Assembly (NCBI GenBank): GCA_000146465.1
Contig: CP001952.1
DNA: 64,000 nucleotides
Reading direction: 5' to 3' (one strand)
Shown in pieces: positions 13,472-16,537 of this stretch. Below the pieces are notes generated by a model. It was not told the origin of the DNA, ran no database searches, and saw only the letters and a list, made by a program, of their open reading frames with translations. A program made the position numbers and the translations under genes. The first letter of the stretch is position 1. The number at the start of each line of letters is the position of its first letter.

Positions 13472-14599
13472 TTAAATTCTATCTCTATAATACTCATATT
13501 CTCCATTTCTAAAGCACTCCACTACATATGAGACAATCCTTTCGACATCCACTTCCTTGGAATCCAAGGCTCCTATAAACTCAATGAGCTGCTCGCCCTG
13601 AAGCTCCAGTATTTTTTTTGCAAAGAACCTGAGGATGGCTGCAGCAAAGAACATAAAAACAGAGAAATCGAAGAACAGGAAAAAATCCCACATTCTTAGA
13701 GCCAACTTGATATCAAACCTTGTAAATAGCGTCAAATACCAGCCCACGGCATAAACCCCGATATCTATGCTCTGATGTAGTAGATGGCCATACACCTCAG
13801 GTATTAAAGCCCGGAAAATCTCATCCTGCACTCTCTGCACCCGAGGAACCTTGCTCAGCTTCTTGTCAAACAAGGCTTCTAGATTGTTGTTCTTGATGAT
13901 GCTGACAAGCATCTCAAAGGCTTCTTCCTCAGGGAAATACATTAAGAGCAATGCTGCAGCACTGGACATTCCTTGGCAGTATCCAACCTCCGGATTGTAA
14001 TTTGAGTATGCTGTAAGGATATTGAACAATTCGCATTGCCCTCTTCCATATTCTCTGCTGAAGAGACAGTGTCTTCGGAAAGTCCTCTGAACATCCACAT
14101 GGATCTGATGCTCATATCCACTCCTTTTTGATATTAGACTTGAGTAACTGAATCCCGAGGCCTTGGGAGTAAACAGTCCCCATAATCTGTACTTCAGGGA
14201 GAGAGGAATTCCTTGGTATATCAATCTTCTCGCAGCCTCGCTTCTTCGCAGCTTTTCTCCATTATTTTTGCATCTTGCTATGAGATCGTACCATTCGTTT
14301 TTGATGGAGACGGGATTGTCTCTGGCCTGGGAGTTGAAGCTATCTACAACGAATCCATACTCGTTTGTGCAAAAAATCTCTTCGGACATACTATTGGCAT
14401 TGTAGAGATCTCTTATGCATCTTTCGTTCTTCATGTTGTTTTCGAGCCGCATTTTTATAAATAGAGGATCTGAAACATCAAGAAAAGGCTGATTGCCCTC
14501 CAGATAGATGTGTTGTAACTCTTTGAAGTCCCTGCCCCGTGACACATGTGTAGAGTCCGGCCTGAAAATCTTGTCTGCTAACGCCTTGGACTGAAACAA
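13472..14599 (-). CDS. TBC-domain Rab GTPase-activating protein
   Basis: 375 aa. Carries the TBC arginine-finger (IHVDVQRTFRRH) and glutamine-finger (YCQGMSSAAALLLMY) motifs. Confidence 0.75.
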   Translation of the reverse strand: MFQSKALADKIFRPDSTHVSRGRDFKELQHIYLEGNQPFLDVSDPLFIKMRLENNMKNERCIRDLYNANSMSEEIFCTNEYGFVVDSFNSQARDNPVSIKNEWYDLIARCKNNGEKLRRSEAARRLIYQGIPLSLKYRLWGLFTPKASGFSYSSLISKRSGYEHQIHVDVQRTFRRHCLFSREYGRGQCELFNILTAYSNYNPEVGYCQGMSSAAALLLMYFPEEEAFEMLVSIIKNNNLEALFDKKLSKVPRVQRVQDEIFRALIPEVYGHLLHQSIDIGVYAVGWYLTLFTRFDIKLALRMWDFFLFFDFSVFMFFAAAILRFFAKKILELQGEQLIEFIGALDSKEVDVERIVSYVVECFRNGEYEYYRDRI

Positions 14600-14641
14600 T
14601 GCAAGAGATCTGTGTAAATTAAGAAAAACTCAATAGAACAT

Positions 14642-15223
14642 ATGCATCATAAGAGCACAGTCAAAAAGACATTCAAAGTCTTGTTTTTCTTTATCCAGGC
14701 ATTAGTGTTTATTTCAGGGGTTGGAGGGTCGATAGTTGGAACAACAGTCTATCTAACTGCACACGAACTCCTTCAGATACCTAAAAAGGCACTTGTGATT
14801 TCGTACACATTGGGAATTCTAGAAGTGACATCGGGGATTCTTGGATACACGGCATTGGTGTCGAGAAGAAAGATTCGAATGCTTGTCTACATCCTAATCA
14901 CACTTATCCTCATGAATGCCCAGGCCATGGCGGTGGTCAAGAACTCAGCTATCTACGAGAAGTCACATTCATGGGCAGATCAAAGATGGAGTTTATTGAG
15001 TGAAGAACAACGAAACTTTATTCAGATGAAGTTTAGATGCTGCGGGTTTTTTAACCCAGCCGACAGAAATGGATCCAGCTGTGGAGGAGAGTATGGATGT
15101 GCAGAAACGATTGATAAGCTTTCCAAGAGTACGGTAAAGCTTCTGCAAAAAATTCTGATGTTTTTGTTCTTCTTGGAGTCGGTTGGAGTTGGAATTTTGA
15201 GTATGCTAAGACTTAGAAAGTGA
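14642..15223 (+). CDS. Tetraspanin-like four-TM protein with a CCG motif
   Basis: 193 aa with four hydrophobic segments. A large loop between TM3 and TM4 contains FRCCGFFNP...SCGGEYGC, which is the tetraspanin CCG signature plus extra cysteines. Confidence 0.5.
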   Translation: MHHKSTVKKTFKVLFFFIQALVFISGVGGSIVGTTVYLTAHELLQIPKKALVISYTLGILEVTSGILGYTALVSRRKIRMLVYILITLILMNAQAMAVVKNSAIYEKSHSWADQRWSLLSEEQRNFIQMKFRCCGFFNPADRNGSSCGGEYGCAETIDKLSKSTVKLLQKILMFLFFLESVGVGILSMLRLRK

Positions 15224-15331: not shown

Positions 15332-16537
15332 TTGGAAGGAACTTATAATTTAAAAATTTGCCCCCTTATAATGCACCAGGAAAATAGAAAGAAACGGATT
15401 CCAGGTATTCACTCATACCTAGCAGTTATAGGAGAGCTTCGGCAAGAGCTTGGGAAGGTTAATGAGTCGATAAACGACCTCCGAGATAAGATATCAGCTA
15501 TTTACAAGCAGGAGAGAGAAAACTCCCCAAAGAATAATTTATACAAGAAGCTAGAAGAGCTGGGTAACGAGATAAAGGCATTGAAGGAGGATAGGTCGAA
15601 AGCATTTAACTCTAAAAACGATGTTGTGGGAGTATATGAGAATGTAAAGAGTGAGATCCAGCCGGAAAAGGGAAAGAAAATGATGAGTGCACAGGAAATC
15701 GATGCGCGCATGAAGGAGATAAACCTCAAGCTGATTTCTTCGAAATGTGATTCCAAAACAGAAAAGATATTTGAGATGGAAATGGAAAATCTTAGGAAAC
15801 AGAAGAAGAATATCGGGATGATGGAGCAGAAGAGCAAGCTTGCTGTAGATATGAAAGCCAAGCTTGATTCGTTGAATGCAGAGATTAAGGATCTGAGCCA
15901 GAAGATAGCAGAGAGGCAGTCTGTTGTAGATGGAATAAAGGCTGAGCTTAAAGAGATAAGCGACCAAGGAAAGCCTAAGAATCCGGCTGTTGAGGGGTAT
16001 GAGAAGAACATTCAGATACTCAAAGCCAAGAGAAGCGATCTTTCGGAGAAGATAAAGGCACAACAGGAGAAGATAAGAGAGAAGGAGGTTGAGTACGATA
16101 AATTCCTTGAAGAGATGGCTATTGCACAGGCACTTGAGAAGCAAAAGGAGGAGATTAAACAGAGAATAAATGCTCTTGAGGAGCAAAAGAACATTCTCTC
16201 TAAAGAGGAGTCGAAGCTTAATCCTTCGAAGTTTGATTCTATAATATTTAGAATGGGGTCTCTTAACCTGTCTGGAGAGAAGATCAGCCTTCCTGTCGAT
16301 CTAGCTCTCTATCTAAGTCAGCATAAGATTCCAATTCCAACATCCCCTAGTCAAGTGGAACCTACTATTGAGACACTTAAGTCTCAGAAGGAAAACTTTG
16401 CAAACCAAGTAGTTGAAAAGAGGAAGGAATTTGAAAGCAAGATCTCTGACCTGGAAAGAAAGATATCCGAAGAGAAGAAAACTTTAATGGAGATGCCTCC
16501 TACTGATATAAAGGTGTTGAAGTTCAAGCGGGATTAA
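15332..16537 (+). CDS. K/E-rich coiled-coil protein of unknown function. A likely alternative start lies at 15371.
   Basis: 401 aa of heptad-rich K/E/L sequence. The internal Met at 15371 is preceded by AAAAATTTGCCCCCTTATA, which combines AAATTT and the CCC motif. The antisense ORFs 15502-16011 and 15551-16186 are low-complexity mirror images. Confidence 0.5.
   Translation: MEGTYNLKICPLIMHQENRKKRIPGIHSYLAVIGELRQELGKVNESINDLRDKISAIYKQERENSPKNNLYKKLEELGNEIKALKEDRSKAFNSKNDVVGVYENVKSEIQPEKGKKMMSAQEIDARMKEINLKLISSKCDSKTEKIFEMEMENLRKQKKNIGMMEQKSKLAVDMKAKLDSLNAEIKDLSQKIAERQSVVDGIKAELKEISDQGKPKNPAVEGYEKNIQILKAKRSDLSEKIKAQQEKIREKEVEYDKFLEEMAIAQALEKQKEEIKQRINALEEQKNILSKEESKLNPSKFDSIIFRMGSLNLSGEKISLPVDLALYLSQHKIPIPTSPSQVEPTIETLKSQKENFANQVVEKRKEFESKISDLERKISEEKKTLMEMPPTDIKVLKFKRD

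Follow-up and report, generated by a model that had tools for sequence, protein, structure and literature searches.

Introduction

In the animal tetraspanins CD81, CD9 and CD53, a cone-shaped bundle of four helices is capped by the second extracellular loop (EC2), which in CD81 carries the disulfides C156-C190 and C157-C175, and the animal tetraspanin webs are supported by palmitoylation of juxtamembrane cysteines. The N18/E219 pair of CD81 is said, in work attributed to Zimmerman et al. in 2016, to coordinate cholesterol in an intramembrane cavity. Three fungal tetraspanin families are treated by Lambou et al. 2008 (PMC2278132), where Microsporidia are not mentioned. For Microsporidia themselves the main account is that of Heinz et al. 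[quoted passage not shown] These authors noted that the tetraspanin is conserved in other microsporidian genomes, proposed a role in physiology and infection, and drew an analogy with Pls1 of Magnaporthe and Podospora; the corresponding cluster in their Table S19 holds 33 human genes, none from yeast, and 1 each from N. ceranae, E. bieneusi, E. cuniculi and E. intestinalis. García-España and colleagues say that their own earlier tetraspanin survey included Microsporidia. Usmani et al. 2025 (PMC11929483) mention tetraspanins purely as a visual analogy, in that polaroplast lamellae resemble the photoreceptor discs that tetraspanins stack. Here we examine a stretch of 64,000 nucleotides (hereafter the window; contig CP001952.1 of assembly GCA_000146465.1), in which an open reading frame (ORF) at 14642..15223 had been proposed, in a reading made from the sequence alone, to encode a tetraspanin-like protein of a microsporidian-type genome. 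We conclude with high confidence that this gene is the single tetraspanin of Encephalitozoon intestinalis, and that its product is a stripped-down but canonical member of the superfamily.

The gene is already annotated and the family has been in the literature since 2008-2012, and the identification itself adds nothing new. The sequence-only reading was aware of no characterised examples in parasites of this type, which is fair as far as functional characterisation goes, whereas the existence and annotation of the gene were already on record in databases and in Heinz et al. 2012. In the literature that we searched we found no description of the features that set the microsporidian proteins apart, namely a minimal EC2, absent palmitoylation cysteines, invariant tails and linkage to a RabGAP gene, and no mention of the locus tags (Eint_111600, ECU11_1600 and others).

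Identity and family membership

The complete coding sequence, an ATG-to-stop ORF at 14642..15223 (+) in the ORF list of the window, encodes 193 aa plus the stop, as had been claimed. The protein is 100% identical to Eint_111600 of Encephalitozoon intestinalis ATCC 50506, which carries the UniRef name "Tetraspanin", and the earlier call of a microsporidian genome was therefore correct. The window contains no paralog of the gene, and the protein contains no catalytic motifs.

Three lines of evidence, the sequence profile, the positions of conserved motifs and the fold, together make membership in the tetraspanins secure. In a Pfam-A search the protein matches PF00335 (Tetraspanin) at E = 5.6e-11, well above what chance would give, and scores 43 bits where the curated cutoff is 32.1. 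The alignment runs from residue 11 to residue 185 and takes in positions 1-218 of the 225 in the profile. When 1.84 billion representative proteins were searched exhaustively with HMMER, 121 matched at E <= 1e-3, ranked as a graded run of ~186-199-aa proteins followed by longer proteins of 205-300 aa. From the short matches we built a family alignment of 31 members, 26 of which match PF00335 individually; a homolog search with this alignment gained just two more distant members, and the non-microsporidian representatives in the family are mostly metagenome or Logan proteins. A single-sequence phmmer search of PDB sequences gave no match, and the solved tetraspanins are reached by the family profile only. 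When run against all PDB sequences, that profile matches nothing but tetraspanins below E = 1, led by Tspan15 (8esv, 2e-5), CD53 (6wvg, 2.5e-4) and CD9 (6k4j, 1.5e-3) and joined by Tspan15 EC2, Sm-TSP-2 EC2 and Tspan7. In the alignment with CD53, Q19 and E179 fall on two conserved residues, the Asn of TM1 and the Glu of TM4 respectively, and C147 falls on the "ASC" (PxSC-type) cysteine and C153 on the "EGC" cysteine. An AlphaFold2 model computed with the family alignment has a mean predicted local distance difference test score (pLDDT) of 90.9 and a predicted template modelling score (pTM) of 0.79, with helices at residues 2-44, 48-73, 77-118, 121-130 and 153-191. Foldseek comparison of this model with the PDB fills places 1-8 with tetraspanins (CD53, CD81, uroplakins Ia/Ib, PRPH2-ROM1 and Tspan15), at probabilities of 0.85-1.00, query-normalised template modelling scores of 0.43-0.65 and sequence identities of 11-18%. 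The similarity proposed by the sequence-only reading thus extends well beyond the CCG tripeptide.

These searches also bear on the possibility that the protein belongs to some other four-TM family, such as the MS4A/CD20-like, claudin/PMP22, MARVEL or L6 proteins, and has acquired its CCG by chance. We regard this as extremely improbable and effectively refuted. PF00335, above its curated cutoff, is the sole Pfam-A family recovered, also when the threshold is relaxed to E <= 10; among solved structures the family profile reaches five tetraspanins at E < 1 and nothing from any other four-TM family; and the CCG is accompanied by two more cysteines kept at canonical positions. Of these families, MS4A does appear among the structural matches, through FcεRIβ and CD20, but those matches are confined to the TM bundle (128-149 residues) against 174-188 residues for the tetraspanins. 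With no CD20-like Pfam match and structural likeness limited to the TM bundle, MS4A/CD20-like membership was ruled out.

Topology and conserved features

The four hydrophobic segments that had been noticed by eye correspond to four Kyte-Doolittle hydropathy peaks (19-residue window) at residues ~13-33, 50-70, 80-100 and 169-189 and to the helices of the model, with a long hydrophilic stretch at 101-168; the number of TM segments is not fewer than four. The distribution of charge orients the chain. Taken together, the N-terminal tail (1-12), the TM2-TM3 loop (74-79) and the C-terminal tail (190-193) contain 11 K/R and 0 D/E in 22 residues, against 2 K/R and 1 D/E in the first extracellular loop (EC1, 40-50), and the medians across the 31 family members are 9 K/R on the cytosolic segments versus 2 in EC1. 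Based on hydropathy, the AlphaFold2 helices and the positive-inside rule, both termini and the short TM2-TM3 loop are predicted to be cytosolic and the ~68-aa EC2 to be lumenal or outside. The near-invariance of the EC2 cysteines (C133, C147 and C153 in 31/31 members, C134 in 30/31) fits placement of this loop on an oxidising, extracytosolic side, in agreement with the loop-like insertion outside the cytosol that had been suggested.

All features that follow lie on the + strand. The chain opens with a cytoplasmic N-terminal tail (residues 1-12, MHHKSTVKKTFK; 14642..14677) that is basic, with 4 K/R and 0 D/E, and almost invariant. It leads into TM1 (residues 13-39; 14678..14758), which is defined by hydropathy and model helix 2-44 and carries the conserved polar residue Q19 (28/31). 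EC1 (residues 40-50, ~11 aa with 2 K/R; 14759..14791) contains the break between model helices at 45-47, and is followed by TM2 (residues 51-73; 14792..14860; hydropathy, helix 48-73), with G68 in 30/31 members. The short cytoplasmic loop (residues 74-79, SRRKIR; 14861..14878) has 4 K/R in 6 residues, in keeping with the positive-inside rule. TM3 (residues 80-100; 14879..14941), covered by a hydropathy peak and by helix 77-118, contains the conserved polar residues N92 (30/31) and Q94 (25/31). Beyond EC2, TM4 (residues 169-189; 15146..15208; hydropathy, helix 153-191) has a conserved E179-S180 pair, with Glu in 25/31 and Ser or Thr in 31/31, and the chain ends in a cytoplasmic C-terminal tail of four residues (190-193, RLRK; 15209..15220) with 3 K/R, invariant among close orthologs. 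The RLRK tail was considered as a KKXX-type ER-retrieval signal and rejected, as its lysines are not at -3 and -4/-5.

EC2 (residues 101-168; 14942..15145) was delimited from the secondary structure of the model and contains all four cysteines of the protein together with the conserved W116 and Q123. In the model, helix A extends TM3, helix B occupies residues 121-130, a short Cys-rich subloop follows, and helix E runs into TM4. The FRCCGFFNP stretch is encoded at 15032..15058, within this TM3-TM4 loop as originally described, and includes the CCG motif (C133, C134 and G135; 15038..15046; TGCTGCGGG), with C133 in 31/31 and C134 and G135 each in 30/31 members. The third cysteine, C147 (15080..15082; 31/31), stands at the "PxSC" position of animal tetraspanins by alignment with the CD53 "ASC", and the fourth, C153 ("GC"; 15098..15100; 31/31), stands at the start of helix E by alignment with the CD53 "EGC". 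The subloop thus reads CCG-x11-C-x5-C over 19 residues, with a conserved D141-R142 and without C/D helices. Outside EC2 the window protein has no cysteines, and across the 31 family members no cysteine in those parts is conserved; membrane-proximal cytoplasmic cysteines that can be palmitoylated are usual in animal tetraspanins and in some fungal ones, but they do not strictly define the superfamily. The sequence-only reading had counted four further cysteines beside the FRCCGFFNP stretch, which is a miscount: the total is four, the CC plus two. CC plus two is also what the canonical tetraspanin pattern, with its two disulfides, requires at a minimum, so the error leaves the identification unweakened. 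A potential glycosylation site at N143-G-S was rejected as a conserved feature, as the Asn is not conserved in the orthologs.

Comparison with described tetraspanins

The window protein shares with the animal tetraspanins (CD81, CD9, CD53, Tspan15, uroplakin Ia/Ib and PRPH2/ROM1) the four-TM bundle, EC2 helices A, B and E, the CCG plus the cysteines at the PxSC and EGC positions, and the polar TM1 Asn/Gln and TM4 Glu. It differs from them in its economy. The solved animal chains are 220-317 aa long against 193 aa here, and the window protein has an EC1 of ~11 aa, a CCG-to-last-Cys subloop of 19 residues without C/D helices, no juxtamembrane palmitoylation cysteines and no conserved N-glycosylation sequon. 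Its basic cytoplasmic tails, almost invariant in the family, are a further difference.

The four-cysteine EC2 pattern is also common to the fungal Pls1, Tsp2 and Tsp3. Judged by spacing against published patterns only, the arrangement CCG-x11-C-x5-C-x15-TM4 of the window protein is nearest to that of Tsp2, CCG[YF]-x12-C[YF]-x6-GCK-x13-TM4 (PMC2278132), and Tsp2 is likewise similar in EC2 size (72 aa) and in its short inner loop. The fungal families, however, differ in C-terminal tails that are long or charged and in a putative palmitoyl-cysteine where TM4 ends, in contrast to the 4-aa tail of the window protein, which has no such cysteine. The role of fungal Pls1 is in spore germination and host penetration, and it is with this protein that Heinz et al. 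(PMC3486916) drew their analogy. The microsporidian tetraspanins already recorded in databases and in the literature are of the same family, and nothing in sequence sets the window protein apart from them; microsporidian members have in common the ~190-aa architecture, Q19/N92/E179, the four cysteines of EC2 and a neighbouring RabGAP-TBC gene.

Distribution and selection

Orthologs of this ~190-aa tetraspanin occur across Microsporidia, and many are already so named. Full-length orthologs (193-194 aa) share 76% identity in both E. romaleae and E. hellem, the latter annotated as "tetraspanin-like protein", and 70% in E. cuniculi, and extend to four further assemblies, where identity goes down to 56%. 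Other members of the short family come from Nosema granulosis, Conglomerata obtusa, Hepatospora eriocheir and Spraguea lophii, the last two annotated as "Tetraspanin", and from Vairimorpha (Nosema) ceranae and Pseudoloma neurophilia, where the name "Tetraspanin family integral membrane protein" is in use. The gene order of the window (proteasome subunit, hypothetical, Myb, RabGAP-TBC (-), tetraspanin (+), a ~390-aa coiled-coil protein and PUF) is the same in E. cuniculi, E. hellem and two Encephalitozoon-like assemblies, and in the shorter E. romaleae locus both genes that flank the tetraspanin are the same. Contigs from two public sequencing runs (Logan DRR353006 and SRR21023573) have the Encephalitozoon gene order with tetraspanins 56% and 62% identical to that of the window, and presumably belong to Encephalitozoon/Ordospora-like microsporidia that are undescribed or unsequenced.

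Selection was estimated by the Nei-Gojobori method on six syntenic orthologs, with the ratio of nonsynonymous to synonymous substitution rates (dN/dS) taken where dS is unsaturated; regional values are given as the corresponding ratio of proportions (pN/pS). For the tetraspanin as a whole dN/dS is 0.07-0.13, which indicates strong purifying selection. Constraint is strongest in the cytoplasmic tails, with pN/pS 0.05 and 83% of columns invariant in residues 1-12 and complete invariance (100%, pN = 0) in residues 190-193, and next strongest in TM4 (0.16). The EC2 stalk and CCG subloop are average in constraint at 0.26-0.31, the subloop itself standing at 0.31, and helix E of EC2 (residues 154-168) is the most variable region at 0.59.

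This pattern bears directly on the suggestion, made by the sequence-only reading, that the protein is a candidate surface factor for interaction with the host. In such a role EC2 would bind a host molecule during adhesion or invasion, or where the parasite meets the parasitophorous vacuole. There are reasons to entertain it, as some tetraspanins of other parasites are surface exposed, including the schistosome Sm-TSP-2 that our family profile matches, fungal Pls1 is required in host penetration (cited in PMC3486916), and the T. hominis homolog is found in the infective spore. Nevertheless, EC2 shows no diversifying selection, with pN/pS at 0.26-0.31 over most of the loop and reaching 0.59 in helix E only. 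In animals the EC2 subloop confers specificity for partners; here it is cut to ~19 residues, and its DR motif is conserved among species whose hosts are mammals, insects, crustaceans and fish, a combination that argues for a conserved role internal to the parasite. We therefore consider a host-interaction function unlikely, and the earlier suggestion unsupported: EC2 does not evolve fast, and microsporidia of very different hosts have kept the protein. Rather, the conserved tails, the absence of rapid evolution in EC2 and retention across parasites of mammals, insects, crustaceans and fish favour a conserved cell-biological role over host-specific ligand binding.

Proposed mechanism and cellular setting

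By homology with solved tetraspanins, the most probable mechanism is the generic one of the superfamily, the lateral organisation of proteins and lipids or the shaping of membranes. In this mechanism, two disulfides, C133-C153 and C134-C147, would staple the small EC2 cap over a cone-shaped bundle, and Q19 and E179 would line an intramembrane lipid (sterol) pocket, which is plausible given that these residues fall at the positions of N18 and E219 in CD81. Homology suggests that the protein would act as a membrane organiser, not as an enzyme or a receptor, through lateral association with itself and with partner membrane proteins, and such association could lead to microdomains or to membrane shaping. 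The near-invariant basic tails (MHHKSTVKKTFK and RLRK) may contact cytosolic or lipid partners. As to setting, we propose with moderate to low confidence a housekeeping role in the organisation of the parasite plasma membrane or endomembranes, with the protein also present in spores. Fungal Pls1 offers an analogy for a possible part in germination or in remodelling of the sporoplasm membrane, and a host-specific role in ligand binding appears less likely.

Several points weigh against this proposal. In the literature that we searched, no microsporidian tetraspanin has a reported experimental localisation, partner or phenotype. Both the disulfide pairing and the lipid pocket are predicted from alignment. 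The evidence from spores comes from T. hominis, a distant species, in which the homolog was detected at the low spectral count given above. Finally, juxtamembrane cysteines are absent here and none is conserved in the family, and the mechanism by which microdomains would form may therefore differ from that in animals.

A more specialised function is conceivable, in which the protein organises stacked or curved membranes specific to the spore, such as those of the polaroplast or those associated with the polar tube, in the manner of peripherin-2/ROM1 in discs or of uroplakins in plaques. The detection of the T. hominis homolog in spores, the likening of polaroplast lamellae to photoreceptor discs (PMC11929483) and the retention of the gene throughout the phylum all point in this direction. 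That likening is, however, purely visual and implicates no microsporidian tetraspanin, and the spectral count in spores is low. PRPH2/ROM1, moreover, shape membranes through a dimerising EC2 of ~140 aa against ~68 aa in the window protein, and the structural likeness reflects the common fold, not a specific subfamily. We accordingly view a dedicated role in spore membrane stacks as doubtful.

A broader hypothesis, which we put forward as improbable, is that the microsporidian proteins form a distinct, ancient and minimal lineage of ~190 aa, kept in single copy even in the smallest eukaryotic genomes and essential for a membrane event specific to the phylum, perhaps coupled to the RabGAP-TBC protein. 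Such a lineage would be marked by four cysteines and a conserved DR subloop in EC2, by basic tails that do not vary and by the lack of palmitoylation sites, and the event in question could be the organisation of polaroplast or sporoplasm membranes during polar-tube germination. The RabGAP-TBC gene stays adjacent to the tetraspanin from Encephalitozoon to Spraguea.

The gene retains some value as a lead. All microsporidian genomes sampled have preserved one tetraspanin in the face of extreme gene loss, selection on it is strongly purifying, and it has been detected in spores of one species. It is among the few conserved multi-pass membrane proteins in microsporidia that could organise invasion-related or transporter-rich membranes, and its minimal size suggests a possible model for the core tetraspanin fold.

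Neighbouring genes and intergenic region

The RabGAP-TBC gene lies directly upstream of the tetraspanin, in divergent orientation, in all Encephalitozoon loci. In Vairimorpha ceranae the RabGAP-TBC gene (50% identity) likewise adjoins the tetraspanin divergently, and in Spraguea lophii the two genes are adjacent in tandem, with 43% identity over the TBC domain. The gene is located at 13472..14434 (-) in the window, and at L007:3922-4902 (-) and L006:82-1722 (+) in two of the compared loci. The adjacency has outlasted deep divergence and an inversion; it may be a mere instance of the known conservation of synteny in microsporidia or a hint of a functional link between trafficking and the tetraspanin.

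The mechanically called ORFs on either side of the tetraspanin, 13472..14599 (-) and 15332..16537 (+), have TTG starts and exceed their orthologs in length. For the RabGAP-TBC protein the most likely start is the ATG at 14434, which gives the 320 aa also seen in E. cuniculi, E. hellem and E. romaleae; for the downstream protein it is the ATG at 15371, which gives 388 aa. This downstream gene (15371..16537, +) encodes a Lys/Glu-rich coiled-coil protein of ~388 aa with no Pfam family above threshold, and its position is kept in all Encephalitozoon-like loci. The ~390-aa gene was rejected as a conserved partner of the tetraspanin, as the neighbour of similar size in V. ceranae bears no relation to it. 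In T. hominis, orf_2916 adjoins the tetraspanin and encodes a protein of 387 aa that is abundant in spores.

Between RabGAP-TBC and the tetraspanin lies a divergent intergenic region of 207 bp (14435..14641), for which the six orthologous upstream regions were aligned. Two blocks are conserved among the six species, one at ~14445..14480 next to the RabGAP start (TTTTTATAAATAGAGGATCTGAAACA) and the other at 14591..14620, 22-51 nt upstream of the tetraspanin ATG (CTGAAACAATGCAAGAGATCTG-TGTAAATT). The heptamer CTGAAAC occurs in both, and the blocks are probably TATA-like core promoter elements together with a shared motif.
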